A DNA stretch of 64,000 bases from Marinicella sp. (lineage in GTDB: Bacteria; Pseudomonadota; Gammaproteobacteria; Xanthomonadales; Marinicellaceae). A program made the translations under genes and the position numbers. Shown piece after piece: positions 290 through 60,711 of the stretch. Below the pieces are notes generated by a model. The model was given only the letters and a program-made list of their open reading frames with translations, was not told the DNA's origin and did no database searches. The first letter of the stretch is position 1. Each line of letters starts with the position of its first letter. The stretch spans positions 3,616,001 to 3,680,000 of the forward strand of contig OZ246001.1 of assembly GCA_965230295.1 (NCBI GenBank), in the 5' to 3' direction.

Positions 290-302
290 ATGTTCAAAAT
301 GA

Positions 303-1739
303 ATGTCCCAAAATGATCCTGAAAAAGCAGAAATAAAGATGAATGACATGCGCCCGGTCAGAGCACATAACGACAGCATAGAAAACCTAAAAATACCTCC
401 TCATGCAGTGGAAGCTGAAAAAGCGGTGTTGGGAGGTTTGTTGTTGGTGGCCAGTGCCTGGGACAAAATTGCCAGTAAGTTAGCAGCTGAAGATTTTTAT
501 CAAAAAAACCACCAACATATCTTCAAAGCCATCGCATTCATCAATGAAAATCAACAAGCCTGTGATGTGGTTACTGTCAGTGACTGGTTAGAAGCCCACA
601 GCTTGACTGAAAAATCAGGTGGTTTGGATTATTTGGCTGAGTTGGCGGCCAACACACCTGGTGCGTCGAATGTAGAAGCTTATGCCAAAATCGTTCGGGA
701 AAAATCTGTGCTGAGGCAGCTGATTCAAATCGGAAACGAATTGGCAGAAAAAGCCTTCAATCCGGAAGCACAAACCGCTGATGAGTTGATTGAAGAGGCG
801 GAAAAACTGGTTTTTCAAATACGTGAACAAACCCTCAAATCACAATCTGGTTTCCATGACATCAAGGAAGTTTTGAAAGAAACCATAGAGAATCTGGAAG
901 TGTTGGCGGAAAGTGATGGAGACATCACTGGTCTGCCATATGGCTGGGTTGATCTGGACAAAAAAACGGCAGGTTTGCAGCGATCAGACCTGATTATTGT
1001 GGCGGGTAGGCCGGCCATGGGTAAAACTTCATTTGCAATGAACATCGCCGAACGTGCAGCCATAACTGGCTCATCTGTTGCGATATTCAGTATGGAGATG
1101 GCCGCCCATCAGTTGGTGATGCGCATGTTCTCATCACTGTCACAAATCAACCAGGCTGACTTGAAACGCGGTAAACTCAAAGACAATGATTGGCCAAAAC
1201 TGGGACAAAGCAGTGCCTTGTTGAGCCAATCAAAATTGTTTATAGATGATCAGCCGGCATTAAGCCCCAATGAAATCATGTCACGTTGTCGTCGCTTGAA
1301 GAATCGCCATGGGTTGGATTTGATTGTGATCGATTACCTGCAGTTGATGCAGGTCAAAGGCAAAGTCGAAAACCGTGCCAATGAAATTTCAGAAATATCT
1401 AGAAACCTCAAAGCCATGGCCAAAGAGTTGGATGTGCCTGTGATTGCCTTGTCTCAATTGAATCGTTCATTGGAGCAGCGACCCAACAAACGTCCTGTGA
1501 TGTCCGATTTGCGTGAATCAGGAGCCATTGAACAAGATGCCGATTTGATCATCTTTATCTATCGTGATGAAGTTTATAACCCCGATTCTCAAGATAAAGG
1601 CAAAGCTGAAATCATCCTTGGTAAACACCGAAACGGTTCGATTGGTAAAATCGATTTAACCTTCAGGGGGCAGTTCACTCGATTTGACAATTATGAAAAT
1701 GACATCATGCTAGAAGACCCGGGTGCTGACTTTCACTAG
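303..1739 (+). CDS. dnaB: Replicative DNA helicase
   Basis: PPHAVEAEKAVLGGL N-terminus, Walker A GRPAMGKT, IDYLQLM, SDLRESGAIEQDAD; no intein. Confidence 0.98.
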   Translation: MSQNDPEKAEIKMNDMRPVRAHNDSIENLKIPPHAVEAEKAVLGGLLLVASAWDKIASKLAAEDFYQKNHQHIFKAIAFINENQQACDVVTVSDWLEAHSLTEKSGGLDYLAELAANTPGASNVEAYAKIVREKSVLRQLIQIGNELAEKAFNPEAQTADELIEEAEKLVFQIREQTLKSQSGFHDIKEVLKETIENLEVLAESDGDITGLPYGWVDLDKKTAGLQRSDLIIVAGRPAMGKTSFAMNIAERAAITGSSVAIFSMEMAAHQLVMRMFSSLSQINQADLKRGKLKDNDWPKLGQSSALLSQSKLFIDDQPALSPNEIMSRCRRLKNRHGLDLIVIDYLQLMQVKGKVENRANEISEISRNLKAMAKELDVPVIALSQLNRSLEQRPNKRPVMSDLRESGAIEQDADLIIFIYRDEVYNPDSQDKGKAEIILGKHRNGSIGKIDLTFRGQFTRFDNYENDIMLEDPGADFH

Positions 1740-1742
1740 ATT

Positions 1743-2819
1743 ATGCACAGAGAACGAGGCACCAAGGCCAGCATCAACACCCAACACGTTAAGGATAACC
1801 TCGACGTCTTCAAACAACTCCACCCTGGAAAAATAATAGCCGTGGTCAAAGCAGATGCTTATGGACATGGCTTAGAACGTGTGGTTCCCGCACTACAAGC
1901 CTGTGATGCTTTTGCGGTGGCCACCATTGATGAAGCCTTGGAATTGCGTTATCTTGATGCCAGTAAGAGGATCATCCTACTGGAAGGTGTATTCAATGAG
2001 TTTGAAATGCAAGCAGCCGTTAACCACAGTTTTGATGTGGTTTTACATCAGGACTATCAGCTCGATCTGTTAGCTGGCATGGATGAACCAAAGACGGTTG
2101 ATGTGTGGTTGAAGATAGATTCGGGCATGAACCGTTTGGGGTTTAAACCGGATGAAGCAGAAGGAAAGATCACTCAAATGATTTCCATGACTGCGGTCAA
2201 TGAAATCAGGTTGATGTCTCATTTTGCCTCTTCTGATGATGTGGGTTGTCAACAGACAATAAACCAGCAGGGCATCAATGAATGGCTCATAGACAAAGGT
2301 TATGAATATTCATTGAGTAACACCGGTGCGGTACTCAACCACTTGTCTGACATCCATGAATGGGCCAGGGTTGGTATAGGCTTGTATGGTATTTCACCGC
2401 TGAACGACACCAAATGGGCATCAGACTTTGGTTTGAAACCGGCGATGCGACTCACCGCTAAAATCATAGCCAGTAAACACATCTCAGCAGGCAGCTTGGT
2501 TGGGTATGGTGGACAGTTCAAAGCTGATACTGACATGCGTATCGGGATAGTCGGCATTGGCTATGCCGATGGCTATCCTTGGTCAGAACACAGCAGCAGG
2601 GTGGTCGTTGATGGTCAAACCGTCAATGTATTGGGCCGGGTTTCCATGGACATGATTGCCATAGATCTGACCGGGTTTGAGCAGGAAATGACCGGTTCAG
2701 AGGTCGTCATTTGGGGTGATGAATTGCCCATTGAACGGGTGGCCAGCGATCTTAAAATGATTCCTTACGCACTTACTTGTGGTATTACCAAACGTGTAAA
2801 ATTTTATGATATTCAGTAA
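1743..2819 (+). CDS. alr: Alanine racemase
   Basis: AVVKADAYGHG PLP-lysine motif, KIDSGMNRLG, GYADG, GRVSMD; follows dnaB. Confidence 0.97.
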   Translation: MHRERGTKASINTQHVKDNLDVFKQLHPGKIIAVVKADAYGHGLERVVPALQACDAFAVATIDEALELRYLDASKRIILLEGVFNEFEMQAAVNHSFDVVLHQDYQLDLLAGMDEPKTVDVWLKIDSGMNRLGFKPDEAEGKITQMISMTAVNEIRLMSHFASSDDVGCQQTINQQGINEWLIDKGYEYSLSNTGAVLNHLSDIHEWARVGIGLYGISPLNDTKWASDFGLKPAMRLTAKIIASKHISAGSLVGYGGQFKADTDMRIGIVGIGYADGYPWSEHSSRVVVDGQTVNVLGRVSMDMIAIDLTGFEQEMTGSEVVIWGDELPIERVASDLKMIPYALTCGITKRVKFYDIQ

Positions 2820-4083
2820 CATAGTCAACTATTTTAAGAAACAAGTTGAGCCTAAAGAGTGGCCAGTATTGATCTGGTCCTTCTTGTATTTTGTTTTTCT
2901 GTTAGCTGGTTATTTTATTCTAAGGCCCATTCGTGAAGAAATGGGGGTCACGGCCGGCCCTGAAAATTATGGTTGGTTGTTTCTTTCAACTTTCATAACC
3001 ATGCTGCTGTTGCAACCTTTTTATGGCAAGGTGGTTTCAACTTATTCAAGAAAGCAATTCATCCCGATCATTTATGGTTTTTTCGGCTTGATGATTCTGA
3101 TTATCTGGTCTTTGTTTCACCTGATAGGGACAGAAAGTGTTTACTTGGCAAGGTTCTTTTTTGTATTTGTCAGTGTCTATAATTTATTTGTCGTTTCTAT
3201 TTTTTGGAGCTTCATGGCAGATGTCTACACCAAGGCACAGGGTAAACGACTGTTTGGTGTGATAGCTGCTGGAGGAAGTACAGGTGGCATTTTAGGCAGT
3301 GAATTAACCAGTTATCTGGTCTATCAGGTGGGTACCATTAATTTGTTATTGGTGTCATTAATATTTTTGATGGTTTGTATATTCATTGTATTCAAAGTCA
3401 GAAAATTTGCCACAGATTCATCCATTAACACAGGGGCACCTTTGGGTGGCAGTCCAATTGAAGGCATGAAGTTATTATTGGATTCAAAGTTTCTTCGTCA
3501 AATTGCATTGATGGTGGTAATTTCAGTCATTATTGGATCTATTTTTTACTATTTACAAGGTGAGTATGTAAGGCAATTTTTTCCAGAAAGAGATCAAAGG
3601 ACTGATATTTTTGCAACAATTAACAAATACACCAATTACCTCACATTGTTGTTTCAATTGGTACTAACTCCTTGGTTGTTGCAGAAGTTCAAAATTCACA
3701 ACATCCTGGGGATTTATCCAACCATGATGATTTTGGCCTTGTTAATGTTTGGCTTAATGCCCGTTTTGTATGTGGTTTTGGGTGCCATAATTTTCCAGCG
3801 CAGTGGCGCTTATGGCATCATGAAACCACCCACAGATTGGCTGTTCACCGGTTTACCGGACAACATGAAATATAAGTTTAAGAATTTTCTCGATACGGTG
3901 GTATATCGCGGAGGTGATGTTTTCGCCCAATTGTTTTTCGTCAAAACGGTGGTAACCTTCTCAAAAGACCTGAGGGTTCTGGCTTTATTGGGCGCTCTAC
4001 TATGCTTGGTTTGGTTATGGAATGCCGTCAGTGTAGGCCGTTTAGCCATGTCAACATTTGAAAAATACAAGCATGATTCCTAA
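2806..4083 (+). CDS. MFS transporter, NTP/NDP exchange (TLC/NTT-like) family
   Basis: About 12 hydrophobic segments; YFILRPIRE, FWSFMADVY..QGKRLFGVIAAG and KYKFKNFLDTVVYRGGD motifs. Confidence 0.8.
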   Translation: MIFSNIVNYFKKQVEPKEWPVLIWSFLYFVFLLAGYFILRPIREEMGVTAGPENYGWLFLSTFITMLLLQPFYGKVVSTYSRKQFIPIIYGFFGLMILIIWSLFHLIGTESVYLARFFFVFVSVYNLFVVSIFWSFMADVYTKAQGKRLFGVIAAGGSTGGILGSELTSYLVYQVGTINLLLVSLIFLMVCIFIVFKVRKFATDSSINTGAPLGGSPIEGMKLLLDSKFLRQIALMVVISVIIGSIFYYLQGEYVRQFFPERDQRTDIFATINKYTNYLTLLFQLVLTPWLLQKFKIHNILGIYPTMMILALLMFGLMPVLYVVLGAIIFQRSGAYGIMKPPTDWLFTGLPDNMKYKFKNFLDTVVYRGGDVFAQLFFVKTVVTFSKDLRVLALLGALLCLVWLWNAVSVGRLAMSTFEKYKHDS

Positions 4084-18570: not shown

Positions 18571-21500
18571 ATGCCCAATAGATTTGCCAAAAAGTTTGCA
18601 AGAAGTACTGCACATGTAACCCAGTTTAATTCAGTTCTGTTACTTGTTATTGTCTTATTCATGTCATCATCCATGGCTGCAGACATTCCATATGTTAATT
18701 GGGAAAATCACCCGGTACATGCACTTGATATGTCACCCGACAAGACACGGTTGGCTGTAGCACATACAGCTGATAACCGAGTGCAGTTGTTTGATGTTTC
18801 TTTAGGGCACCCGGTAAGACTGGGGCATGTAAAGGTTGGCATTGATCCAGTTTCAGTGCGATTTAAAGACAACAACGAACTGTGGGTTGTCAATCACATT
18901 TCAGATTCTGTGTCAGTGGTTGATTTCAATCAACGAATTGTCACAGCTACTTTACAAACCGAAGATGAACCTTTTGATGTCGTGTTTGCCAACAACAAAG
19001 CCTTTGTGAGCTGTTCTCAAGTCAATAAAGTGATGGTGTTTAACAGCAACGACTTGTCCACCACACCTGATGTGATTGATTTGATGGCAGAAGATCCAAG
19101 AGCCATGACTGTTAATGCCGATGGTAGTCGAGTGTATGTGGCCAGTTTTGAGTCAGGTAACAAAACCACCATATTGTCTGGCGGCATCGATGATACTGAA
19201 GACACCTTGACGTTTCCATTCAACCCGGTGAATTCAGTGCTCACTCCTTACCAAGGTGAAAATCCACCCCCCAACGATGGCAGCAGCTTTTTCCCTGCCA
19301 TCAACCCAGAAAACCCGACAGCACCCAAAGTTTCATTGATTGTAAAACAACAGGACGATGGCCGCTGGTTGGATGACAACAATGGCGATTGGACCCAATT
19401 CATTTCTGGTTCTCAAGCCGCCGTATCTGGCCGCATCCCTGGTTGGGAATTACTGGATCATGACATTGCGGTGATTGACACCACCACCCATGATGTCAAC
19501 TATGTAACGGGGCTGATGAACTTAGGCATGGCCATTGGTTTTAATCAAGCCAACAACCAAGTGACTCTGGTGGGCACAGATGCCACCAATGAAATCAGAT
19601 TTGAACCAGTTTTGAAAGGGAAGTTCTTGAGGGTAAAAATGGGTGTGGTCAGTGAGAGTAATTTGTCAAGCCCAACAGTTCATGACCTGAACCCACATCT
19701 GGATTACATCAATTCAACTGAATCGCAAGCAACCCGTGATTTGTCTATTGGGGATCCCAGAGGTGTGGTGTGGAATCAATCTGGCTCTCTGGGCTATATC
19801 AGCGGTATGGGTTCTAACAATGTGATCGTCATCAATGCCAATGGTGATCGTGTCGGATTGATCGAAGTGGGCGAAGGTGCCACAGGATTGGCCATAGATG
19901 ATAACAATGAAAGACTTTATGTTTGGAATCATTTTGCTGCCAGTTTATCTGTTATAAACGTATCGAATAACACGGTGGTCAATACTGTCGACCTTTTCAA
20001 TCCATTACCCACCGCCATTAAGCAAGGCCGTCAGTTTTTATACAGCACGCATGAAACATCCGGTTTGGGACAACTTGCTTGTGCATCATGCCACGTGGAT
20101 GGCAGGATGGATAGATTGGCTTGGGATTTAGGTGATCCTGCAGGGGAAATGAAAATTTTTAACCAAAACTGTCAAACCACCTTAAGTCTGCTGGATTCTG
20201 CCGGCTGTTCTGATTTCCATCCTATGAAAGGCCCCATGATGACCCAAACATTCCAGGACATCATTGGCAATGAACCCTTTCATTGGCGGGGCGATCGTGA
20301 CGGTATAGAGGAATTCAATGGTGCGTTCATGGGGTTAAACGGAGATGATGTCATGCTTAATCCTACACAAATGCAACAGTTTAAAGACATGTTGTCCACC
20401 ATCACCTTTCCACCCAATCCATTTAGAAATTTAGACAACAGCCTGCCAACAAGTATTGATTTGAGTAACCATTACACTTCTGGTCGTTTTGCCCCTGCTG
20501 GCCAACCTCTGGGATCAGGCAACCCAATAAATGGTTTGGAATTGTTCAACGGAGGTTTGTTAGACAGCATTTTTCAGTGTGCCAGCTGTCACACAGTACC
20601 GACAGGAATGGCCGTCAATGGTCCACTAAAACCGGGACTGTTGAATCTTGATGTGGGTGGTGAAATCATGCCTCCCGGGCCGATGGGAGAAAATCATTTG
20701 GGAGTGGTCAGTGTTGATGGATCGACACAAAAATCAATCAAGACACCTCAATTGAGGAATTTATATGACAAAGTGGGGTTTGAAACTTCACGGCCTCAAT
20801 CCTTGGCGGGCTTTGGTTTTTTACACGATGGGGCCCTTGATTCTGTGGCACGTTTTTTAAGTGCGGGTGCCTTCAGTGTCGAATCGGATCAAGAAGTGGC
20901 AGATTTGGTGGCTTTGATGATGGCCTTTTCAGGCTCGGAATTAGAACGTGGATTGGTTCCTTTGGGTAACACAGCACCTGAGTCACAAGACACCCATGCA
21001 GGTGTTGGCAAACAATATACCATGACTCAAGCCAGCCAAATGGATGAAACACTGGATGAATTATTGGTGGTGGCTGACAGTGGCAAAGTGGATTTAATTG
21101 CCCAGCAAGGTCGTTCAAAAAGCTATATTTATGATTTGAGTAACCAGACATTCAATTCAGCAGAAAATGAAGCCATATCAACCTTGGGATTAATGTCCTT
21201 AGCTGCGGTAAATGATCCCATTACATTCAGTTTGGTGCCTGCGGGCTTAGGCAATCGGCTGGCCCACGACAGAGATGGGGACGGAATCAGTGATGACCAA
21301 GAAATTGCAAATGGTTCAGATCCTACTGATCAAATCTCGACCGGCATTAAACCTTTGGCTGGTTTATGGTACAACCCGGAAAGAAGTGGTCATGGTGTTG
21401 ATTTACAGCATGCGGGAGATAATTTATTCATTATCTGGTATACCTATAATGATGATGGGACACCAACATGGTATCTGGCTGCCGGTGAGTACAGTCCCAA

Positions 21501-22053
21501 TTGGCAAGCCCCCCTCAGTCGCTTTACTTGGGATGCATCGAGCAGAACCACCAATGGTGAAGAGGTGGGTACAGTAAATATGAATTTTTCCAATGCCACA
21601 CAAAGTACTTTTTCCTGGGACATCAATGGCCGAACAGGATCAGAATCTTTTCAATATTTTGCTTTCGCTGGTGAACCAACCATCCAACAACACACCAGTT
21701 CTTACTATGACCCCAACGACAGTGGCTGGGGAATCTCAGTTATCACTCAAGGCAACACATTGGTCAGCATCATTTTTTACTATGATGAAGCAGGTGAACC
21801 GATATGGGCACTTGGTACTGGACCAACAGACAACAGTGTAGACATGTATTCCTTTGTAGGCTTTTGTCCCGATTGTGACTTCAATGCAACAACTGCACAA
21901 TTGGTTGGCTCACAGCAATTGAATTTCATACCAGGGCGTTTGATTGATTTTGATGTCAGTTTACAAGCGCCCACATTGTCAATTAACTGGACCCTCAATG
22001 ACGTCGCTTTGAGTCCCTTGTCCAATGAGTTTTTTGACCCTGAATTACAATAA
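18571..22053 (+). CDS. Secreted YVTN beta-propeller / dihaem cytochrome c protein with Ca-binding loop and duplicated C-terminal domain
   Basis: Signal-like N-terminus; propeller repeats; two CASCH motifs (about 20080 and 20578); FHWRGDR, KTPQLRN; DRDGDGISD; GLWYNPERSGHG and SYYDPNDSGWG repeats. Confidence 0.8.
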   Translation: MPNRFAKKFARSTAHVTQFNSVLLLVIVLFMSSSMAADIPYVNWENHPVHALDMSPDKTRLAVAHTADNRVQLFDVSLGHPVRLGHVKVGIDPVSVRFKDNNELWVVNHISDSVSVVDFNQRIVTATLQTEDEPFDVVFANNKAFVSCSQVNKVMVFNSNDLSTTPDVIDLMAEDPRAMTVNADGSRVYVASFESGNKTTILSGGIDDTEDTLTFPFNPVNSVLTPYQGENPPPNDGSSFFPAINPENPTAPKVSLIVKQQDDGRWLDDNNGDWTQFISGSQAAVSGRIPGWELLDHDIAVIDTTTHDVNYVTGLMNLGMAIGFNQANNQVTLVGTDATNEIRFEPVLKGKFLRVKMGVVSESNLSSPTVHDLNPHLDYINSTESQATRDLSIGDPRGVVWNQSGSLGYISGMGSNNVIVINANGDRVGLIEVGEGATGLAIDDNNERLYVWNHFAASLSVINVSNNTVVNTVDLFNPLPTAIKQGRQFLYSTHETSGLGQLACASCHVDGRMDRLAWDLGDPAGEMKIFNQNCQTTLSLLDSAGCSDFHPMKGPMMTQTFQDIIGNEPFHWRGDRDGIEEFNGAFMGLNGDDVMLNPTQMQQFKDMLSTITFPPNPFRNLDNSLPTSIDLSNHYTSGRFAPAGQPLGSGNPINGLELFNGGLLDSIFQCASCHTVPTGMAVNGPLKPGLLNLDVGGEIMPPGPMGENHLGVVSVDGSTQKSIKTPQLRNLYDKVGFETSRPQSLAGFGFLHDGALDSVARFLSAGAFSVESDQEVADLVALMMAFSGSELERGLVPLGNTAPESQDTHAGVGKQYTMTQASQMDETLDELLVVADSGKVDLIAQQGRSKSYIYDLSNQTFNSAENEAISTLGLMSLAAVNDPITFSLVPAGLGNRLAHDRDGDGISDDQEIANGSDPTDQISTGIKPLAGLWYNPERSGHGVDLQHAGDNLFIIWYTYNDDGTPTWYLAAGEYSPNWQAPLSRFTWDASSRTTNGEEVGTVNMNFSNATQSTFSWDINGRTGSESFQYFAFAGEPTIQQHTSSYYDPNDSGWGISVITQGNTLVSIIFYYDEAGEPIWALGTGPTDNSVDMYSFVGFCPDCDFNATTAQLVGSQQLNFIPGRLIDFDVSLQAPTLSINWTLNDVALSPLSNEFFDPELQ

Positions 22054-22088: not shown

Positions 22089-24791
22089 CTATTCGAAATC
22101 ATCAGCGAAAATCAAGTCTGTGGTGGTTGAGATCATGATGGAAACCACTGCCGTGCTACAAGCATTGATTGGATTTTCATCATCACACGCTTCATAGCTG
22201 AACGAATCAGTTGTGTTTGCGCTCCCGTCGTGTGCGTAACTGAATGTACCATCGGCATTCAAGATCAGCATCCCATGCATAACATCAACGACCACTTGGG
22301 CAGTCAAGCTGTTGTCATCAGGATCACTGTCGTTGGCCAGAACTGAATCACTTCCAATGTCTAAAATACTGACAGTACCTCCATTCAATGTGGTGACTGC
22401 ATCATCATTGGCATTGGGGGGATCATTGACAGGGAAGACTGTAATGCTTGCTGTGGCAGTGTCGCACGCCATTTGATCATCACACAATTCATAAATGAAA
22501 CTGTCAGCTGTGGTTTCACTGCCATCATGGGTATAGCTGAAGGTGCCATTGGTGTTCAGGGTTAAATCACCATTGATCACATCGGTATCAAGAGAGACGA
22601 TTAGGTTGATGTCATTGGGGTCAGTGTCATTGAACAGCAATGAATTGGCACCTGCGGTGACTGTGGTGGTCGTTCCTCCTTCATCCACATCGATGCTGTC
22701 ATCGTTGGCTATCGGAGGGCTGTTGGTGATTTCAATGGTGATGTTCACAGTGCCATCGTCACATTTAACCGGGCTGCCATCGTCGCAAACCCGATAAACA
22801 AATTGATCGCTGGTTGCCAATGAATTGTTGTGCGAATAGCTGAAAGATCCATCGCTGTTTAAAGTCAGAGAACCATTTGTAGGACCTGAAACTGGTGTTG
22901 TGACCACAGTTAAAGTGTCATCAGGAAAATCAACATCGGTGTCGTTAGCAGTTAATAAGGAAGAACCACCATCCACTTCTGTGATGGTGTCTCCTTGCTC
23001 GCCTGACAGGGAATCATCCATTGCCACTGGGTTGTCATTACAAAAGTGTGCAAAAGCCGTTAGGTATTGGCCATCCTCACCACCGGTGGTGGTATTGCCT
23101 TGTTCTGTAGCATACTTGTTGTAAATCCAGAAGCATTCCTCATCAGGATCAACTGCAGTAGCAGAATAGTCTCCCCACCGATTGGTTCCTCCACCAAATG
23201 TACGAACATAGGATTCTTCTCCAGCTCGAATAAGTTGAGCCGGGCGCATGAAGTCTAAAGGGTCTGAAGGCGATCGATGTACAAAGTATGAACTGGGAAA
23301 AATGTTGTTGTTAGAAGCGGTGAAACCCACAGTTACACCTTCATCTTCATTGACCGCAATCGAGGCATATGAAGTGTAGGTGTTGTTGGCAATGTCTGTA
23401 TTGCCACCGATGGTATTGCCTTGCACAAAGGAGGGCGTACCATTGGTCTCAATTTGGCCCCAGAAGGCCGTGGCTTCACCTGCATCGGTTCCAGATCCGG
23501 GCAAGACTTCAGTGGTGAAGTAGATTGAGTCATTGCGCCAGACAGCATCCAGCACCCGACGATCACCTGAATCAATGTCTGTGCTGGTACCGGCTTGTGG
23601 GGCATCTGGAATGTCACCTCCCCCGGTGTTGTCAACATTACCAATGGACACCAACTGACGGGTGAAAGTGGGGTTAGCGCTCAGTGGGTTGTTGACTCGA
23701 ATTAGCTGGATGGACTCCTGGAATCCATTGGTGATGCCTGAATATCCAACCAGCCAGGTGCCCACACTGCCACCTGGGTTTCCGTAGACATGGGCTGGCA
23801 TTTGTGTCACTGCAAAACCACCAGAAATTGTGGTTTGATCAAATATACTGGCAGAGGCAGAACCACCGTTATAAAAACTTTTGTCAACAATAATCAAGCG
23901 ATTCCCGCCTGAGTTACCGGCAGTGGGGCTGCCATCCAAAAACCTGAACATATTGCCCGTGATGTATATGGCCTGATCGTCAACAGCCAATCCTGGATAA
24001 TCCAACCAATGGGGCAAACCACCAATGTTTATTTTGGTGTTGATCTCGGTCACAGTCCACGATCCATTGGGGTCGCTGTCATCAGAAACCGCCAACAACA
24101 CCAATGATGCGTCCGAAGCAGCACCGGTACCCGAATCAACACGTTCCAATGTAACCACCAACCAGCGATCTTCATACTGGTCGTAAATGACTTTCGGATC
24201 AAAGGTGAAGTTGGCAGGTGTCAAGGCGGAAAAGAAGGCTTGTAAGTCATCTGAAAAATCTTGAGTACCGTCTTTGTCATAAAATTCGATTGAAACATTG
24301 ATCACACTGACCACATGGTTGGGACCAGCAGCGCCATGTGCATCAGCCGGGATGAACAAGAAACCGCCAGTATTATTGATGTTGGTTTCTGTGCCGCCAG
24401 CTGTAATGGTGTTTTGAATGGCTCTGGTTGTGGATTCCTTTTTACTAAAATCCAGCTCATCAGTCTCCACATATTGATACTTTGGTTTATTTTTCTTGGG
24501 CGTGGGTGGTTCAGAAACCCAATATTCAGAAACATCATCAGTTTGAATCGTTCCAGATAAAGCCGTTTTCTCTATGATGGTCGTTTCAACCGCTGTGGTC
24601 GTTAACAAGGCTGCATCGTTGTTGTCATAGCTGTATTCTTCAACTTGACCAGAAACTGAATTGGTTGTTGGTTCATTGGCATAGGCAAAAACAGACTCAA
24701 CGTTCTCTGCTGATGTTAATGGCCAGGAACTCAGCAAATAGCCCATCACGAATAAAATTGTAGCGAGGGTCATCATCCAACGTAAATTCAT
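22089..24791 (-). CDS. Secreted surface protein with three cadherin-like/Ig (Big_9-type) repeats and C-terminal DLIFADDFE
   Basis: Signal peptide; RWGDYS..VDP N-terminal domain; three N.PP.A.DD...L.ND.D...G.L.LN.DG.FSY.H repeats. Confidence 0.82.
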   Translation of the reverse strand: MNLRWMMTLATILFVMGYLLSSWPLTSAENVESVFAYANEPTTNSVSGQVEEYSYDNNDAALLTTTAVETTIIEKTALSGTIQTDDVSEYWVSEPPTPKKNKPKYQYVETDELDFSKKESTTRAIQNTITAGGTETNINNTGGFLFIPADAHGAAGPNHVVSVINVSIEFYDKDGTQDFSDDLQAFFSALTPANFTFDPKVIYDQYEDRWLVVTLERVDSGTGAASDASLVLLAVSDDSDPNGSWTVTEINTKINIGGLPHWLDYPGLAVDDQAIYITGNMFRFLDGSPTAGNSGGNRLIIVDKSFYNGGSASASIFDQTTISGGFAVTQMPAHVYGNPGGSVGTWLVGYSGITNGFQESIQLIRVNNPLSANPTFTRQLVSIGNVDNTGGGDIPDAPQAGTSTDIDSGDRRVLDAVWRNDSIYFTTEVLPGSGTDAGEATAFWGQIETNGTPSFVQGNTIGGNTDIANNTYTSYASIAVNEDEGVTVGFTASNNNIFPSSYFVHRSPSDPLDFMRPAQLIRAGEESYVRTFGGGTNRWGDYSATAVDPDEECFWIYNKYATEQGNTTTGGEDGQYLTAFAHFCNDNPVAMDDSLSGEQGDTITEVDGGSSLLTANDTDVDFPDDTLTVVTTPVSGPTNGSLTLNSDGSFSYSHNNSLATSDQFVYRVCDDGSPVKCDDGTVNITIEITNSPPIANDDSIDVDEGGTTTTVTAGANSLLFNDTDPNDINLIVSLDTDVINGDLTLNTNGTFSYTHDGSETTADSFIYELCDDQMACDTATASITVFPVNDPPNANDDAVTTLNGGTVSILDIGSDSVLANDSDPDDNSLTAQVVVDVMHGMLILNADGTFSYAHDGSANTTDSFSYEACDDENPINACSTAVVSIMISTTTDLIFADDFE

Positions 24792-38982: not shown

Positions 38983-39318
38983 AGGTTGATTAACCTACAA
39001 AGGCTCATTACACGTACTGTGATGATCATGTAGCCAATCAGATCAACTGTCGAGACACAACAGTCCTCATTCATTTCTACTGTTGTGAATTATTCACAGT
39101 TAACACGATCCAAAATGATGATTCAGACATCGATGTTTTCTTGTTATGTGGGAATTAATTGACAATTTTTTAAGAATTTCCCCATATCCAAAACCGGCCA
39201 CAATACTTCAAATTAAGTTGATCAAGCGTCTTTTTGTGACATGGAATATATACATGTATGCAAAATAAGCCAACATTTCAAGGCTGTAATGCTTGATTCA
39301 ACTATTGAGGAGGCATTT

Positions 39319-40584
39319 ATGAAAAACATACATTTATTAGCAACGAAGCCAAGAAAGAAGGACAGAAAAATCTCATCTTACGATGCAATGAATCTGTTTA
39401 AATTGATCAAGTTAAGTTTTGTTTTATTGGCTTTATTTTTTCCGTATACTGTTATGGCACAGAATGATTGCAGATGGGCTGGAACAGCACCTAGCTGCAA
39501 CGGTTCTTGCAATGCTGGTGAAAGTGAGATCACGAGATTGAGTTTTCTACCTGGTGGGTACCCGCCGTATTACTATGGTCCTGATTTCGGTAAGCCATGT
39601 ATTTCTGGGTCAAAAGCATTGTGCTGTAAGACTCCTGGCAGATCCTGTCGCTGGGATGGCACAGCCCCTTTTTGCGAAGGATCCTGTAATGCTGGTGAAA
39701 AAGTATCCCAACCACCAGCGGGTTCATCCAGTGGAAAAGCTTGTTGGACGGGCAAAAAGGTGTATTGTTGTCGTTCGACAGGTTCCAGTCAATCACCGCT
39801 AACGGCCAAGTCTGAAAAACCACTGTACGCTGCCATTTGGGAAAAAGGTGATGGTACTGCCTGGGTGGCTCGCCACGACATGACTCCCAAAAAATACCAA
39901 CAAGAATTTGATCACTGGGTGAAAAAAGGTTTTCGACTGGTTGATGTCAGTGGCTTCAGTGTGGGTGGTCAACAACGTTTTGCAGCCATCTGGGAGAAAA
40001 GCAATGGACCGGCTTGGCTGGCCCGACACGGCATGGATTCTGCACAATACCAACAGGCGTTTAACAAATGGACTCAAAAGGGTTACCGCTTGTCCCATGT
40101 CAGTGGCTATGGCGTTGGTAGCGAAGACCGTTATGCGGCCATTTGGGAAAAACGCAAAGGCAAGCCTTGGGTGGCTCGTCATGCCATGACTTCGGCCAAA
40201 TACCAGCAAGAATTCAACAAATGGACCAAGAAGGGCTACCGCTTAATTCATGTCAGTGGCTACAACGCCGGCGGTGAAGACCGTTATGCGGCCATATGGG
40301 AAAAAAGCAAAGGGCCTAAATGGAAAGCAAGACACGGTATGACCTCTGAGCAATACCAGAAAGAATTCAACAAGGTGACGAAAAAGGGCTACCGCCTGAC
40401 CCACATCAGTTCTTGGCGTTCCGGCAAAACCAATCGCTACGCAGCCATATGGGAAAAAGACAAAGGTCCTGGCTGGGTGGCACGTCATGCCATGACTTCA
40501 GCCAAATACCAGCAAGAATTCAACAAATGGACCCAAAAAGGCTATCGACCCAAGGACGTCAGTGGCAGCAAACGAGCAGAATGA
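39319..40584 (+). CDS. Secreted protein with two Cys-rich WxGTAPxCxGxC modules and five ~51-aa bacterial tandem repeats (BTRD1/polyglycine-hydrolase-like)
   Basis: GAGGAGG RBS; hydrophobic signal segment; YAAIWEK..G..W.ARH.MT...YQ..F..W.KKGYRL..VSG repeated five times. Confidence 0.8.
   Translation: MKNIHLLATKPRKKDRKISSYDAMNLFKLIKLSFVLLALFFPYTVMAQNDCRWAGTAPSCNGSCNAGESEITRLSFLPGGYPPYYYGPDFGKPCISGSKALCCKTPGRSCRWDGTAPFCEGSCNAGEKVSQPPAGSSSGKACWTGKKVYCCRSTGSSQSPLTAKSEKPLYAAIWEKGDGTAWVARHDMTPKKYQQEFDHWVKKGFRLVDVSGFSVGGQQRFAAIWEKSNGPAWLARHGMDSAQYQQAFNKWTQKGYRLSHVSGYGVGSEDRYAAIWEKRKGKPWVARHAMTSAKYQQEFNKWTKKGYRLIHVSGYNAGGEDRYAAIWEKSKGPKWKARHGMTSEQYQKEFNKVTKKGYRLTHISSWRSGKTNRYAAIWEKDKGPGWVARHAMTSAKYQQEFNKWTQKGYRPKDVSGSKRAE
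39826..40566 (+). repeat. Intragenic tandem repeat, about 153-bp unit, five copies
   Basis: Near-identical blocks, e.g. CGTCATGCCATGACTTC.GCCAAATACCAGCAAGAATTCAACAAATGGACC at about 40177 and 40483. Confidence 0.85.
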
Positions 40585-46840: not shown

Positions 46841-48601
46841 CTAACCATCCTGCAGAGGACATCCTTTGGCGACTTGAATGCCTTTGTTTTCAGGTTGATC
46901 TAACAGTGCTTTGATCGCCGGGGCATTCCAATTATCAGGTGCCAACAGTAACATGCAACGATAGCTTGATAGGCGTTCTCTGATATGGCCTGCAGCTCTT
47001 TGTGCGCCTGCCAGGTTGTACCATACATTCCATATATAGGGATGTATTTCAGTGTTAAGAAGACAAGTTTCCAGAGCTCCTTGATAATCTTCAATTTTTT
47101 GTAAGTAATCACACACTTGTCTGAGCTCAAACTCTGTTGGAGGAGACCACCATTTAATGGCTGAAAACTTATTTTGCCTGTCGTGATAAGCCGCTCTTGC
47201 GGCTGCACCGCCTTGTTGCCTTGCTATCACGGTTAGGCTTCTCATTTCTTGTCCCTTGAGTATCATATCTAGTGCCGGATCCTGTCCAGTGGCATAATCA
47301 TCAGAGCTGATTACAGCAGGGATGTCGATGCTTAGCGATTCAGCCAGGTCTCCCCAATGTGTTAACTGCAAATACCTGCTCGAGACATATAGATTTGTGC
47401 CGCTGTCAGTATAAGCCTTAGATACTGATTCACTGAAGTGGTTGGGACCCGTTGCCGTGGGTTCGCCAATGATTGTGACTGGCACATTGGCTTTTAATTC
47501 ATGGGCCAATATCAATCCAGCCCCTGCTGTTTTGCGTCCCACTATGATGTACATGCGTTGCCAGGGTGGAACATCCAACCGTTTGATGAGTGCATGAATC
47601 AGGGTATATATTTTGCTGCTATCACCGCCAAAATTCCACCGTAAATCTATCATTAAATGTTTTGGCTTGACTTGATCCAATTCTGCCAATGTAGCTTCAA
47701 AAAAAGTCACAAAATCCGTATCTGATACATATTGAGCACGGATGTAATAGGCGTCTTGCTCAGGCAATGATATGGAGGAAAATGGTGCATTGTCAGACAT
47801 ATGCAATGGCCGGGATAGGCTGGGTTTTTCAAATTCGCTGGATTTAAGGTCATTGTATGCACTGACCCAATCAGTTTTATTATCAATAGGTAAGCCATCT
47901 GTGACAGGGAGGTATTGCCAATTGAAACTTGAGTCATTGGCGTTGAAATTTGTCCGGTTGAAGGCTTTAGCTGACAGGGTTTGCTCTACAGTTTTGCCAG
48001 TTTTTAGTTTCAATGTCATTTTCAATTTGCCTGCTGAAGTGGTAAAACCCAATCCGTTCATTAACATGGCATTGTGTACAGGCCACAGTTTTTCATCTTG
48101 TGCATAACTGTTATCACTCGCCAGCAAAGAATTGACCTGTTGCATCACATGTTCAACAGGTTTTCCGGCGATGGACAATACTTGAGCCCCTGACAGTTGT
48201 TTCAATGAATGGTGCACGGCAGCCAGAAAATAACCATCGCTGAACTTATAGAATCTGACGGGGTACCACAATGCAAATTCAGTGTCTGCTGGTTCCAAAT
48301 AGGTGCTGCCATCTTCTAATGACGCAACCAATTGCATGGTTTTAACCATTCGCTGTGGCTGGCTAAGCTGTGGCATGGTCTTTTTCAATTGCTGCGCCTT
48401 CTTTAGGAACTTGGTTTTGCCGATGGCGAAAAAAGGGTTCGGATGCATCAGTTGAATGTCATTGACTATTTGATCAATGTCTTGCTGCCAACTGATCGCT
48501 GAACGTTCTTGGTCATTGGCTTTTAGCATAGGTGCGTTAAAGACCAAAATCATCAAGGCACAGTATTTATACCATGGGTTATTAAAGTTTATAATTCGCA
48601 T
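46841..48601 (-). CDS. Exported S41-peptidase-like protein with C-terminal TPR
   Basis: Signal peptide; HPNPF, IDLRWNFGGD, GRKTAGAG, IIGEPT, GQDPALD; HPYIWNVWYNLA TPR-like segment. Confidence 0.75.
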   Translation of the reverse strand: MRIINFNNPWYKYCALMILVFNAPMLKANDQERSAISWQQDIDQIVNDIQLMHPNPFFAIGKTKFLKKAQQLKKTMPQLSQPQRMVKTMQLVASLEDGSTYLEPADTEFALWYPVRFYKFSDGYFLAAVHHSLKQLSGAQVLSIAGKPVEHVMQQVNSLLASDNSYAQDEKLWPVHNAMLMNGLGFTTSAGKLKMTLKLKTGKTVEQTLSAKAFNRTNFNANDSSFNWQYLPVTDGLPIDNKTDWVSAYNDLKSSEFEKPSLSRPLHMSDNAPFSSISLPEQDAYYIRAQYVSDTDFVTFFEATLAELDQVKPKHLMIDLRWNFGGDSSKIYTLIHALIKRLDVPPWQRMYIIVGRKTAGAGLILAHELKANVPVTIIGEPTATGPNHFSESVSKAYTDSGTNLYVSSRYLQLTHWGDLAESLSIDIPAVISSDDYATGQDPALDMILKGQEMRSLTVIARQQGGAAARAAYHDRQNKFSAIKWWSPPTEFELRQVCDYLQKIEDYQGALETCLLNTEIHPYIWNVWYNLAGAQRAAGHIRERLSSYRCMLLLAPDNWNAPAIKALLDQPENKGIQVAKGCPLQDG

Positions 48602-50903: not shown

Positions 50904-52112
50904 ATGTCCAAAAGATATCTGATTACCTACAAAGAACAGAAAATAAATACCAAAACAGCCTCAAATTTGCTTGAGATGAGTGAGCAGGATTTTGATGCTG
51001 GCATCGGCATGTTGGCTGAAGGTCGCATGCAAGAAGACACACCAGTGCATCTGGATAAACTGAGCATCAGCGTGGTTTCACTTGAGGAAAGTGAGGTGAA
51101 GAAACTGTCTGCAAAGGACGAGATATTGGCCATTGAGGAAGATGTTGAAGTACGAATCCTTGGGTTTGAGTCTGAAAATGAGGAGGAAGAAAACCAACGG
51201 GTATTGGCCCATTTAAAAGAAGGAGAGTTGGCTGAACAAGTGTTGTGGAACATCGAACATGTGAAAGCGCCCGATGCATGGGCCGAAGGCATAGACGGTA
51301 GTGGCATTAACCTGGCGATACTTGATACCGGCATCGCTGCCCATCCTGACCTTGTCATCACGGGAGGAACTTCATTTGTGTCTGATGTGACGAACCCCAG
51401 CTACGATGACCAAAATGGGCATGGCACCCATTGTGCTGGCATTGCAGCTGGGAGAAGGGGGCTTAATGGTGTCTATGGCGTGGCCAAAAACTGCAACCTT
51501 TTTGCCGTCAAAGTATTGAACCAACATGGTAGTGGTAGCTTCTCAAGCATATTTGCTGGCATGAACTGGTGTATTGAAAATGAAATTCATGTGGCCAGCA
51601 TGAGTCTGGGGGCCAACTCGGTCCCGTCAGTGGCCGCTGCAAATGCGGTGAAAAACTGCCAAGACAATGGTGTCACTGTGGTGGTTGCTGCCGGCAATTC
51701 ATACCAATCAGCATTCCCATGGGTTGGCACCCCAGCCAACTCTTATATGCAGGGTGATGTGGCAGCCAGTCCAATTGCTGTGGCAGCCGTTGACAGAAAC
51801 AACCAAGTGGCACCCTTTTCATCCAGAGGAGCGCAACACAATGATCCTCGCTGGAATCAGGTCAATGTATCAGCACCTGGGGTCAACATTTACTCCACGT
51901 ACTTGAATAATGGCTACAAAGTGTTAAGTGGCACCAGCATGGCCTGTCCGCATGTGGCTGGGATGGCCGCACTGATTTATCAAAAACACAGTGGTCATGT
52001 TTCACCGCATACAGTCAAGCAGAAAATTCTGAATACCGCGCATAATCTCGGCCCCGCACCATACCCCAATGAGGCCTATGGTTTTGGACTGATTGACTGC
52101 AGTGGACTATAA
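50904..52112 (+). CDS. Subtilisin-family (S8) serine protease with I9-like propeptide, no evident signal peptide
   Basis: Catalytic triad motifs ILDTG, GHGTHCAG and SGTSMACPHVAG; AAGN oxyanion motif; AAGGAG RBS. Confidence 0.95.
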   Translation: MSKRYLITYKEQKINTKTASNLLEMSEQDFDAGIGMLAEGRMQEDTPVHLDKLSISVVSLEESEVKKLSAKDEILAIEEDVEVRILGFESENEEEENQRVLAHLKEGELAEQVLWNIEHVKAPDAWAEGIDGSGINLAILDTGIAAHPDLVITGGTSFVSDVTNPSYDDQNGHGTHCAGIAAGRRGLNGVYGVAKNCNLFAVKVLNQHGSGSFSSIFAGMNWCIENEIHVASMSLGANSVPSVAAANAVKNCQDNGVTVVVAAGNSYQSAFPWVGTPANSYMQGDVAASPIAVAAVDRNNQVAPFSSRGAQHNDPRWNQVNVSAPGVNIYSTYLNNGYKVLSGTSMACPHVAGMAALIYQKHSGHVSPHTVKQKILNTAHNLGPAPYPNEAYGFGLIDCSGL

Positions 52113-60018: not shown

Positions 60019-60591
60019 TTATTGAAACCCGTTACTGAAAATCAAATCTATGTCTTCGAACATGATGGATTGTGATAAAACAAAGTCATCTCCATTGACA
60101 GTCGGGTTTGAAGCATCAATGAACACTTGATTAAAGGGTTGGTCTCCAATTACCCCAAAGAAGCCAGTACTTACGTTTCCAAAGAAGGGGAAAATCACTG
60201 TTTCTTCTAATCCCTGCCCATCCCAGTTTCCCTTGATGGTAAGGCCTCGGCTGCTACTGACACTTCGCAGTTCAATACCAAAGGTAAAAACTGGTGCAGG
60301 TAAATCTATGACAATGGTTTCAAAACCTTCATTTCCGCCTGCATTGTAAATTCGAAAAGTCCACTCACCACCTGCAACTCGATTGTCAAGTAGTGTGCCC
60401 ATCGGAGCAGACCCTGTGATTGTCAATCCGGAGTCAAAAGATAAAACAGCTGCATCAGGCATATCAACTTGGAACTCTTCTGTAACAACATTATTATTGG
60501 CCGCAATCCACAGGTTTATATCTGAGAATACAGTTTCCGCAGATGAGTTATTCAAAGCCAGGATACCAGATATTAAAATGAGCTTTTTCAT
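60019..60591 (-). CDS. Small secreted beta-rich protein with C-terminal DLIFSNGFQ
   Basis: MKKLIL signal peptide with AGGGG RBS; IDLPAPVFTFGIEL and GFFGVIGD resemble passenger domains of PEP-CTERM-type proteins. Confidence 0.75.
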   Translation of the reverse strand: MKKLILISGILALNNSSAETVFSDINLWIAANNNVVTEEFQVDMPDAAVLSFDSGLTITGSAPMGTLLDNRVAGGEWTFRIYNAGGNEGFETIVIDLPAPVFTFGIELRSVSSSRGLTIKGNWDGQGLEETVIFPFFGNVSTGFFGVIGDQPFNQVFIDASNPTVNGDDFVLSQSIMFEDIDLIFSNGFQ

Positions 60592-60653
60592 AAACACCCC
60601 TTTCTAAAACTTACAATTAAATCAATTGAAGAATTGGTGTTGCTGAAATTAGA

Positions 60654-60685: not shown

Positions 60686-60711
60686 TCTATCAAACTAAAA
60701 TAGCATGTAAA

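Follow-up and report, generated by a model that had tools for sequence, protein, structure and literature searches.

The two window proteins and their genes

The window, that is, the whole 64-kb stretch of Marinicella DNA that was analysed, encodes two secreted proteins that close in closely similar nine-residue tails (Table 1). The ORF of the 900-aa protein terminates in ...STTTDLIFADDFE* and that of the small protein (190 or 192 aa, depending on the start codon) in ...EDIDLIFSNGFQ*. The interval 22089-22118, to which the preliminary description had assigned the first of these tails, comprises the stop codon together with the nine tag codons. A Sec-like signal peptide had also been claimed for both proteins, and one can indeed be recognised by eye at each N-terminus.

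Table 1. Features of the two tagged proteins in the window
Feature	Position	Strand	Remarks
Gene, 900-aa secreted protein	22089..24791	-	Signal peptide, N-terminal region without named family, three cadherin-like repeats, tag
Tag DLIFADDFE, C-terminal end of 900-aa protein	22092..22118	-	Stop TAG 22089-22091
Three cadherin-like/Big_9/tandem-95 repeats, 900-aa protein	22122..23024	-	~residues 590-890; boundaries approximate
Predicted Sec signal peptide, 900-aa protein	24708..24791	-	Residues 1-28, MNLRWMMTLATILFVMGYLLSSWPLTSA/EN (...WPLTSA/EN), by eye
Gene, small secreted protein	60019..60597	-	192 aa from GTG 60597; 190 aa from ATG 60591
Tag DLIFSNGFQ, C-terminal end of 190/192-aa protein	60022..60048	-	Stop TAA 60019-60021
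Beta-sandwich passenger domain, 190-aa form residues 20-179	60055..60534	-	Alignment and AlphaFold2
Predicted Sec signal peptide, 190-aa protein	60538..60591	-	MKKLILISGILALNNSSA/ET, by eye

The larger protein had been called an Ig-repeat protein. This name suits its three cadherin-like repeats, which match PF17803, PF17963 and PF17892 (three stretches each) as well as NF012211, but it does not extend to the part N-terminal to the repeats, which belongs to no Pfam or NCBIfam family and yet is widespread. In the small protein, most of the passenger domain is modelled by AlphaFold2 with a pLDDT above 90, and the first 20 residues have low values (61, 69). The last strand of this domain, FVLSQSIMF, aligns with F.VDNLSF of homologues that carry a PEP-CTERM signal (alignment A1). 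Because the Foldseek matches of the model are weak (CBM-like jelly rolls, none at E<=0.001), no function is given to the passenger.

On each side of the window proteins, the next gene runs convergently, its start lying 35 to ~180 bases away. (A neighbouring 1160-aa window protein was considered as a tag-less homologue of the tagged protein L068 and was ruled out at E 1.5; its likeness to another tagged protein, L031, is weak, with E 3e-6 over ~230 aa, and the idea was dropped.)

A genuine C-terminal tag

When the whole 64 kb is translated in six frames, the pattern D.IF.[DN][GDS]F[EDQ] has just two matches, each of them 0 residues from a stop codon. The composition of the 44 window ORFs (18,521 residues) predicts 5.9e-4 matches anywhere and 1.4e-6 at a C-terminus; among 2000 shuffles of the 44 proteins, one produced a match anywhere and none produced a match at a C-terminus. 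A chance likeness of the two C-termini has in its favour that the motif is short, and nothing else; the expected numbers and the shuffles tell against it, as does the recurrence of the tag among homologues and across more than 60 other genomes, leaving it with next to no probability. The shared tail of the two window proteins is genuine, and chance is excluded. BLASTP finds no match between the two full-length proteins (best E 0.40), and the original observation of a common C-terminal tag on unrelated secreted proteins is thereby borne out. At the DNA level, 20 of 30 nucleotides are identical in the two tags, the differences are synonymous and the DNA downstream is unrelated; therefore, the tail is not a DNA repeat.

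The tag has the consensus D-x-[IVL]-F-x-[DN]-[GDS]-F-E, after which come 0-7 variable residues. In 38 tails selected by homology, D is present at -2 in 26, I, V and L occur 26, 8 and 4 times, D and N 18 and 16 times, G is found in 27, E in 36 and each of the two F in 38/38, although both F are fixed, and the other positions bounded, by the regex used for selection. The initial statement that the tag has neither a TM helix nor a basic tail is correct: the nine residues and the 0-7 polar or variable ones after them contain no hydrophobic stretch, no basic cluster and no Cys, and the final residue of a tail is E, Q or D unless a short non-basic extension follows. The idea that the tag is a beta-strand found no support, since the last 10 residues of the AlphaFold2 model of the 190-aa protein have a mean pLDDT of 58, form no strand and lie outside the confident fold. 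No Pfam or NCBIfam model covers the tag. A literature search gave nothing on the motif, all text occurrences of motif strings being unrelated.

The tag alternates with known anchors

The 900-aa protein has 477 homologues at E<=1e-3, which include a protein of Marinicella sp. W31 (45% identity) and proteins from Xanthomonadales/Lysobacterales MAGs; among the matches listed, 27 of 119 carry the tag. Many of the orthologues have a lipobox in place of the plain Sec signal peptide. For the 192-aa protein there are 100 representatives at E<=1e-3, nine of which end in the tag. A relaxed motif, [ILVM]F.[DNSH][GDSN]F[EDQ], occurs 36 times in the 219 passenger homologues of the two families (among the matches listed), in all 36 cases no more than 21 aa from the C-terminus and never internally. 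Because these 219 proteins were found by homology of the passenger, this C-terminal specificity, which the preliminary description had anticipated as an enrichment, arises without any selection for position.

The ends of the other homologues are instructive. In the 192-aa family, 53 of 100 are tripartite and PEP/VPLPA-like, another 18 of 100 are TM segments with basic tails of other kinds, and 52 of 85 match models of the PEP-CTERM, VPLPA, PTPA, VPDSG, cyano-PEP or GC-dockerin type at E<=0.01. In alignment A1, the tag occupies the position at which VPEP, the TM segment and RRR begin in these homologues. In the 900-aa family, PF18962 is present in 14 of the 120 homologues listed, and inspection of the tails gives equally many T9SS-like ends; tails of the 3-coathanger-stack type are seen in 12 of 119 (among the matches listed), and GEVED in others. 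Finally, the choice-of-anchor Q domain (NF041518) directly precedes the tag, scoring above cut-off in five of the six proteins tested. Across homologues of three passenger classes, then, the tag is interchangeable with known anchors; the claim that it sits where anchors normally sit is literally borne out, with PEP-CTERM, VPLPA, PTPA, VPDSG and T9SS signals in its place.

Distribution of the tag in other genomes

The spread of the tag was followed at the DNA level with the stop-free pattern DxIFxDGFE in one genome per species. (Neither of the two window tags fits this pattern, which also under-represents the N-rich marine variants.) The scan yielded at least 127 loci, 80 of them with 2 kb of flanking DNA, and at least 126 distinct occurrences, at least 77 of which close a long ORF. 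In the 126 matches listed, the stop codon follows directly in 19, after 1-7 aa in 44 and after 8-21 aa in 21, so that it lies within 21 aa in 84; the other 42 run further, or off the DNA examined. Among the matches listed, the bearers are mostly Dokdonella, Marinicella, Wenzhouxiangella and their relatives, the very groups to which similar tails had been ascribed in the preliminary description.

Tags recur within a genome: there are two in the 64-kb window, to which the paralogue P0022 is probably to be added, and at least 10 of 67 tag-bearing assemblies have two or more by the single strict pattern (among the matches listed). One Marinicella protein (L126) carries a tandem pair. The passengers are diverse. 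Pfam matches, found in 26 of 47 tagged ORFs, fall in very different families: M12 and S8 peptidases, GH44, beta-helix, FG-GAP, Calx-beta, multihaem cytochromes, GSDH and DUF5122. The expected enrichment of signal peptides is also seen, 25 of 28 complete tagged ORFs having a signal-peptide-like N-terminus as opposed to 135 of 317 control ORFs, by a crude and lax hydrophobic-window heuristic that 43% of the controls pass.

Taken together, these results establish a real tag that is specific for C-termini, conserved, modular and recurrent within genomes.

Longer forms of the motif

The motif is not everywhere a terminal tag. At least 22 of the 126 DxIFxDGFE matches open a longer ...SGxxxxW... continuation, and where this is complete it constitutes a ~200-aa domain (alignment A2). 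The forms differ by lineage. In Lysobacterales-type genomes, the motif is followed by 0-7 aa in 46 of the 56 matches listed, and there its description as a C-terminal tag holds. It needs correcting for Acidobacteriota, where among 19 matches listed 10 have the motif plus a conserved 12-aa extension, SGDxSAWSxxxP*, and 7 have the start of the domain, and for Chloroflexota, where the motif is joined to the ~200-aa domain in 13 of the 14 matches listed. The motif can also stand directly after a signal peptide and open the domain there. This was considered as a common arrangement in Xanthomonadales and was not borne out: of the five such cases, L044 is from a Proteobacteria MAG, L048, L089 and L125 are from Acidobacteriota, and L122 is from a Nanoarchaeota MAG.

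A model of one long form (L020) is a ConA-like jelly roll that matches PL7 alginate lyase and glucuronan lyase at E ~1e-7 and TM 0.45-0.63. Since the motif opens this domain in the long forms, a structural origin of the tag is possible. The tail would then be a vestige, the N-terminal edge of a ConA-like domain, with the 21-aa and 9-aa forms as leftovers of domain loss; the jelly-roll fold of the long form and the graded series, from the full domain in Chloroflexota through the 12-aa extension in Acidobacteriota to the 0-7 aa of the Lysobacterales-type, speak for such a history. However, a neutral remnant would decay, and here D, I, G and E dominate across the 38 tails, which are conserved over families at 23-54% identity with the stop codon kept within 0-7 aa. 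Many unrelated passengers, several tags per genome and the tandem pair in L126 are equally hard to derive from domain loss. Even in the long form, the motif (residues 1-10 of the model, which was built from a shallow, 17-row alignment) stays under a pLDDT of 50, so that membership of the fold is not supported; for the same reason, the idea of the motif as the first strand of the long-form jelly roll gains no support. We consider a vestigial tail quite improbable.

The same domain suggests a second, still less probable explanation, in which the tail is a dockerin-like docking peptide that binds a receptor domain of a surface protein, perhaps a ConA-like sandwich minus its first strand, by strand complementation. 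Such a peptide would be expected to be flexible and exposed, as the tag is, and its duplication in L126 and its identity with the first residues of the ConA-like domain family would fit. Against this, AlphaFold2 does not place the motif within the sandwich (again from the 17-row alignment), and the proposal is inferential throughout. In its most explicit version, which we regard as a long shot of about the same order, the tag would be a first strand that has come away from a ConA-like sandwich (the ~21-aa form in Acidobacteriota being its first hairpin) and would complete a strand-deficient surface receptor in trans. If this were true, Lysobacterales-type Gammaproteobacteria and Acidobacteriota would possess a TM-less, sortase-independent 'split jelly-roll' docking system, and this would replace anchoring of the exosortase or T9SS type for proteases, adhesins, cytochromes and glycosidases.

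A possible role for the tag

The reading we favour, with a confidence somewhat above even, takes the tail for a short C-terminal tag that is under selection, is restricted to certain lineages and is borne by unrelated Sec-exported proteins in the slot of sorting signals. As such, it is probably a sorting or attachment signal that has not been described before. Both this role and the way in which it works are inferred. The passenger would cross the inner membrane by Sec and then fold, leaving the acidic-aromatic flexible tail outside the fold; a soluble periplasmic or outer-membrane factor could then read the tail, with the result that the protein is retained at the surface or handed over to an export route. 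With no membrane span, basic cluster or Cys, the tag cannot act like the substrates of a sortase, exosortase or myxosortase, which are retained in the inner membrane and cut there, and the reader of a tag that lacks a membrane anchor must therefore differ in kind from sortase-type enzymes. Nor need the tag itself be an anchor, because, judged by the lipobox, the 900-aa protein has many orthologues that are lipoproteins and thus already anchored.

A search of the flanks of tagged genes (101 ORFs) gave no recurring secretion, sortase-like or protease family, and nothing in the 64-kb window points to a cognate machinery. This would also be the expectation if the tail were no sorting signal at all, but a protective or structural end-piece that caps edge strands or protects the end of the protein against tail-specific proteases of the periplasm. 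Proteases of the Prc/Tsp type favour apolar C-termini, and the tail closes either with an acidic residue or with a few polar residues; moreover, two S41-family peptidases are encoded in the window, and the passengers are beta-rich (beta-helix, Ig-like, FG-GAP, jelly-roll). Yet one would not expect a generic cap to substitute one-for-one for PEP-CTERM, VPLPA or T9SS signals in homologues, or to be restricted to a few lineages. In addition, AlphaFold2 does not pack the tag onto the domain, and the variable 0-7 aa after the E speak against reading of a free carboxyl end. An end-piece is thus unlikely, and a sorting or attachment signal is the interpretation that we retain.

Time and again, new envelope machinery has come to light through a short C-terminal sorting tag, as with sortase, exosortase, rhombosortase, myxosortase and the T9SS. 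The present tag is found on proteases and glycosidases, multihaem cytochromes, adhesins and beta-helix proteins, in Dokdonella, Marinicella, Wenzhouxiangella and uncultured relatives of these. No route by which such proteins arrive at, or are retained on, the surface in these groups was found in Pfam, NCBIfam or the literature searched, and in a proteomic study of Wenzhouxiangella, outer-membrane anchoring had to be assumed (PMC7691419). The regex or an HMM of the tag provides both a phylogenetic profile with which to seek the reader and, for genome annotation, a way to predict secreted or surface proteins.

Comparison with known sorting systems

Haft lists eight attributes of small C-terminal protein-sorting signals (bioRxiv 10.1101/2023.06.07.544157). 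The tag has six of the eight. It is located C-terminally (36 of 36 homologue matches within 21 aa of the end, and 84 of the 126 DNA matches listed), it recurs within a genome (two in the window plus P0022, and two or more in at least 10 of 67 assemblies) and it has a conserved signature (38 homology-selected tails, at positions bounded by the regex). Most bearers have an N-terminal signal peptide (attribute 6; 25 of 28 versus 135 of 317, by the crude rule), pairs of bearers share nothing except the signal (attribute 7; BLASTP E 0.40, and diverse Pfam families in 26 of 47 ORFs), and homologues elsewhere have no signal or another one (attribute 8; both families). The two attributes that the tag lacks are the strongly hydrophobic, TM-helix-like region (attribute 4) and the cluster of basic residues at the end (attribute 5).

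These two also set the tag apart from the signals that it most often replaces. Like the tag, PEP-CTERM, VPLPA-CTERM and PTPA-CTERM (TIGR02595, TIGR03370, NF033465) are C-terminal, occur on unrelated signal-peptide proteins, several per genome, and in the 192-aa family follow the passenger domain at exactly the same point. The tag, however, lacks a TM helix, an Arg/Lys cluster and a Pro-rich signature, and it measures nine residues as against ~25; the PEP-CTERM-type models have no match in the tag-bearing proteins scanned.

TM-less C-terminal signals provide a second comparison. The T9SS type A domain (TIGR04183/PF18962) is, like the tag, without a TM segment, serves secreted or surface proteins and takes the place of the tag on some proteins homologous to the N-terminal region of the 900-aa protein, but it is a folded domain of ~70-100 aa with no sequence likeness to the 9-aa tag, and neither window protein matches these models. 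The T9SS is a Bacteroidota-type system and would not be expected in Lysobacterales-type Gammaproteobacteria. The 3-coathanger stack GCX_COOH signal (NF045639) is also C-terminal, TM-less and short (a 49-position model), and it is found on the same passenger family. It differs in its sequence, GFxVxxGAxFxAxI...C, in its greater length and in having a curated model, which matches other homologues only and not the window proteins.

Likeness to the C-terminal signals of the T1SS is of another kind. Those of proteases and lipases have acidic and hydrophobic residues at the extreme C-terminus, and, like the tag, they are short and uncleaved. T1SS substrates, however, have no Sec signal peptide and usually contain RTX repeats (Ca-binding, GGxGxD) ahead of the C-terminal signal, whereas both window proteins have predicted signal peptides and neither has a match to the RTX family PF00353. 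The beta-signal of outer-membrane proteins is a terminal aromatic residue closing a beta-barrel; the tag instead closes with E or Q or is followed by a variable extension, and the passengers are soluble beta-sandwich or Ig-like proteins. In the ConA-like/LamG-type jelly roll of Chloroflexota and some Acidobacteriota, D.IF.DGFE(SGxLxxW) opens a ~200-aa domain; in the window proteins, a stop codon comes directly after the motif and there is no domain.

Choice-of-anchor domains (such as choice-of-anchor Q, NF041518), lastly, are named for their place just before varied C-terminal anchors. They share with the tag a location at the end of the passenger, but they are the partner of an anchor rather than the anchor, and beside them the tag would be a further 'choice'.

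A shared tail on two unrelated exported proteins

The tag is a nine-residue C-terminal tail, D-x-[IVL]-F-x-[DN]-[GDS]-F-E followed by 0-7 residues. When the whole window is translated in six frames, the regular expression D.IF.[DN][GDS]F[EDQ] matches only twice, on a 900-aa protein and a small protein, and each match directly abuts the stop codon. The composition of the 44 window ORFs predicts 5.9e-4 chance matches in all and 1.4e-6 at C-termini, and shuffling these ORFs 2000 times produced a single match, which was not C-terminal. The two tags, identical at 20 of 30 nucleotides, show synonymous differences and are followed by unrelated DNA; this places the likeness at the peptide level rather than in a DNA repeat. 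BLASTP between the two proteins finds no further similarity (best E 0.40), and both N-termini, read by eye, are Sec-like signal peptides. These results agree with the preliminary description of a tail common to two unrelated proteins with Sec-like signal peptides, and the tail is almost certainly a genuine shared tag.

Three cadherin-like/Big_9/tandem-95 repeats (Pfam, NCBIfam) occupy about residues 590-890 of the 900-aa passenger (the protein ahead of the tag); no Pfam or NCBIfam family matches the part upstream of them, and none matches the small protein. The AlphaFold2 model of the small protein (24-row alignment) is a confident beta-sandwich over residues 20-179 (mean pLDDT 89.8), with weak CBM-like jelly-roll matches in Foldseek, none at E<=0.001. 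The tag, as its last ten residues, has a mean pLDDT of 58 and forms no strand, which argues that it lies outside the fold; as modelled, it hangs free, and the earlier suggestion of a short beta-strand signal gains no support. The window 900-aa protein has a type I-like site (...LTSA/EN) whereas many orthologues (among P0004-P0021 and P0042) have a lipobox (L-x-x-C), and thus the tag occurs on lipoproteins and on soluble exported proteins.

Coordinates of features in the window and in loci of the DNA-pattern scan (L-numbers)
Feature	Position	Strand	Description
900-aa protein ORF	22089-24791	-	C-terminus ...STTTDLIFADDFE, then stop
Small protein ORF	60019-60597	-	192 aa, or 190 aa from ATG (P0001); C-terminus ...EDIDLIFSNGFQ, then stop
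Convergent neighbour of 900-aa gene	18571-22053	+	1160-aa exported protein without tag; beta-propeller repeats, weak di-haem cytochrome c peroxidase/hydrazine-synthase-like matches, bacterial TSP3 repeat; C-terminal region of ~230 aa matching no family (Pfam, NCBIfam)
BTRD1 protein	39241-40584	+	447 aa, five repeats (polyglycine hydrolase-like structural repeat, E 2e-114)
Envelope protease cluster	46841-48601; 50904-52112; 52837-53697; 55544-58219	-; +; +; +	2-13 kb from small tagged gene; two S41-family peptidases, subtilase, CPBP/Rce1-like intramembrane protease
LytTR-type two-component pair	60634-62564	+	His_kinase PF06580 and response regulator; adjoins small tagged gene
L057 (Chloroflexota MAG)	2001-3827	+	ConA-like long-form domain, then long C-terminal YD/RHS-like region (...RFYDPLLGRFIQPDS...)
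L065 (Ca. Sulfomarinibacteraceae MAG)	2001-4001	+	motif (DGIFSDGFETGDTACW) ~320 aa upstream of Peptidase_C25 (gingipain-like), E 1.9e-72
L070 (Dokdonella)	1487-2581	+	PF06580 kinase flanking tagged gene
L126 (uncultured Marinicella, CANNBS010000004.1)	301-327	+	motif match; two tandem tags at end

Position of the tag in homologous proteins

An exhaustive search gave 100 representatives of the small-protein family at E<=1e-3, including one close relative (54% identity) ending in DTIFNNGFE. The tag ends 9 of the 100 (IFNNGFE, IFIHGFE, VFADGFEG, IFKNNFESP, VFADGFESGNLSSWSGTAP and others), a PEP/VPLPA-like motif with TM and basic residues ends 53, another TM and basic tail 18, and other endings 20. 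When 85 of these relatives were scanned with NCBIfam (the 15 omitted being P0002, fragments and long multidomain proteins), 52 matched PEP-CTERM-type, VPLPA, PTPA, VPDSG, cyano-PEP or GC-dockerin models at E<=0.01, 2 matched DUF11 alone and 31 had no match; no model matched any tag-bearer among the 85. In the family alignment the passenger ends with a strand, F.VDNLSF (FVLSQSIMF in the window), and a few residues past it stands either VPEP/VPLP, TM and RRR or else ED.D.IF.NGFE. Tag and known anchors thus occupy the same slot.

For the 900-aa protein there are 477 homologues at E<=1e-3, and tails were classed for 119 of the best 120 listed. The tag is C-terminal in 27 of these 119, near relatives included (Marinicella sp. 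W31, Xanthomonadales/Lysobacterales MAGs and the paralogue P0022). Other listed homologues carry PF18962 (14/120; TIGR04183 confirmed in P0038), GEVED or dockerin endings, and 12 of the 119, homologous to the N-terminal region, end in a 3-coathanger stack (GCX_COOH, NF045639, matching 3 of 4 tested) of the form GFxVxxGAxFxAxI...C (P0034, P0039, P0052, P0060, P0062, P0072, P0076, P0078, P0090, P0097, P0107, P0118).

A relaxed motif, [ILVM]F.[DNSH][GDSN]F[EDQ], occurs 36 times in the 219 homologues listed, each time no more than 21 aa from the C-terminus and never internally. In these 36 tails plus the two window tags, D lies two residues ahead of I/V/L in 26 of 38; the first core position is I, V or L in 26, 8 and 4; later positions are D or N in 18 and 16, G in 27 and E in 36. 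After E come 0-7 residues in 34 tails and exactly 12 in 4.

Distribution and bearers of the tag

A DNA-pattern scan with DxIFxDGFE, stricter than the regular expression and without a stop codon (one genome per species), gave at least 127 loci and at least 126 distinct occurrences. Among the 126 matches listed, a stop follows E directly in 19, after 1-7 aa in 44 and after 8-21 aa in 21 (ten at exactly 12), and 42 extend further or past the end of the sequence examined; a long ORF is closed by 77 of the 84 near-terminal matches listed. The 126 span 106 assemblies (at least two matches in 19), and the C-terminal ones 67 (at least two in 10). About 100 matches are expected by chance in the 596-Gb collection (uniform bases), in agreement with those listed in other phyla, most of which lie inside cytoplasmic-looking ORFs or in short ORFs.

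Matches listed, by group and by distance from motif to stop
Group	Matches	Short (0-7 aa)	Medium (8-21 aa)	Domain start	Internal
Lysobacterales-type genomes	56	46	4	0	5
Other Pseudomonadota	23	14	1	0	7
Acidobacteriota	19	0	10	7	1
Chloroflexota	14	1	0	13	0

Further matches listed are three short-ORF chance cases in these four groups and 14 from other phyla. The weight of Lysobacterales-type genomes (Dokdonella, Marinicella, Wenzhouxiangella, Rhodanobacteraceae, Rudaea, Aquimonas, Tahibacter and others) and of their short forms upholds the preliminary description, which places similar tails in Marinicella, Wenzhouxiangella and Dokdonella-type proteomes.

Pfam was run on 47 of 76 tagged ORFs (omitting 25 from loci with 300-b flanks only and 4 very short ones). 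At E<=1e-5, 26 match widely different families (DUF11, reprolysin-like M12, subtilase S8, beta-helix, Calx-beta, FG-GAP, DUF7948+SBBP, DUF1501, RoxA/CCP-like haem proteins, GSDH, GH44, multihaem cytochrome + Big_9, MAM, cadherin-like, HZS-alpha-like, DUF5122), and 21 match none. By one lax rule, a signal-peptide-like N-terminus is present in 25 of 28 tagged ORFs with a complete N-terminus and in 135 of 317 controls taken from the same loci. In 17 of the 126 matches listed, all 17 C-terminal, D[IVL]G[AP]xE lies within 30 aa ahead of the motif; in 5 of 6 such proteins tested, a choice-of-anchor Q domain (NF041518, scoring above cut-off) ends with this stretch. Passengers of this type take their name from standing ahead of various anchors. 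Adjacent paralogous beta-helix/choice-of-anchor Q genes in a Marinicella MAG (L028 and L029, CALDFB010000145.1) follow the motif with a conserved 18-aa extension ending ...NxTLIRGC. The tandem tags of L126 (...DLIFKNGFES-DIIFKDGFE, then stop) suggest a self-contained, duplicable unit.

In Chloroflexota the motif follows Pro/Thr-rich linkers at the start of a ~200-aa C-terminal domain, D.IF.DGFE.GNL..WS ... YFDAF.S.R..IGP, which has no Pfam match above cut-off. Its AF2 model (17-row alignment, mean pLDDT 79; motif residues 1-10 below 50) is, by Foldseek, a ConA-like jelly roll resembling PL7 alginate lyases, glucuronan lyase and similar (E about 1e-7, TM 0.45-0.63). Among the matches listed, L044, L048, L089, L122 and L125 have the motif directly after the signal peptide, with the same continuation. 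This series of 200, 21 and 9 aa suggests something of the tag's origin and says nothing on the short form's role. From its sequence, L057 may be read as polymorphic-toxin-type.

Neighbouring genes

Among 101 ORFs flanking tagged genes no shared machinery is found, and the sole recurrence is a Ser/Thr protein kinase and/or ECF-type sigma factor adjoining the tagged gene at four loci (L011, with TPR, L021, L042 and L068; two are Marinicella sp. W31), possibly paired with these secreted proteins as their regulators. The PF06580 kinases beside tagged genes are two cases only, in the window and in L070, and may be coincidence. (Cys-containing sorting signals are substrates of Rce1-like enzymes, according to bioRxiv 10.1101/2023.06.07.544157; since the tag has neither Cys nor TM, no link is drawn to the window Rce1-like protease.)

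Proposed role and comparison with known signals

The tag is real, selected, unnamed and TM-less. For the proposal that it is a sorting or attachment signal, C-terminal specificity and the slot shared with anchors stand, but the flanks yield no machinery and no candidate reader is indicated within the 64-kb window; from sequence, such a function is slightly favoured. Sec would export the tagged passenger first, and a candidate periplasmic or outer-membrane factor would then read the exposed tail, so that the protein stays on the surface or is exported onward. A sortase-type reader embedded in the membrane is unlikely, since nothing holds the tail there. One caution against over-reading attachment is that the orthologues of the 900-aa protein are in many cases anchored already, as lipoproteins. 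A study of Wenzhouxiangella AB-CW3 (PMC7691419) reports that the medium showed no proteolytic activity, and its authors assume that the proteases are anchored in the outer membrane, by no known means; this is compatible with a retention tag and is no test of one.

The tag was also compared with T9SS domains, T1SS/RTX signals, OMP beta-signals and the 3-coathanger stack, and belongs to none of them. No Pfam or NCBIfam model covers it, so that the earlier claim does not fall to an existing HMM; among 8.4 million papers, of six motif strings only GFESGD turned up, in four papers, and the three of these listed are unrelated. Other literature searches gave nothing on the motif.

Of the eight attributes of small C-terminal sorting signals listed by Haft (bioRxiv 10.1101/2023.06.07.544157), the tag has six: it lies near the C-terminus, recurs several times in a genome, has at least 3 near-invariant residues, and is borne by unrelated proteins that have N-terminal signal peptides and whose homologues carry another signal or none. 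The TM segment and basic cluster are absent, as first described in setting the tag apart from PEP-CTERM-type anchors, and it therefore falls outside the tripartite sortase-type class. Most likely it is a new variant of C-terminal sorting or attachment signals, like sorting tags in every comparative respect testable here but for the TM segment and basic cluster.
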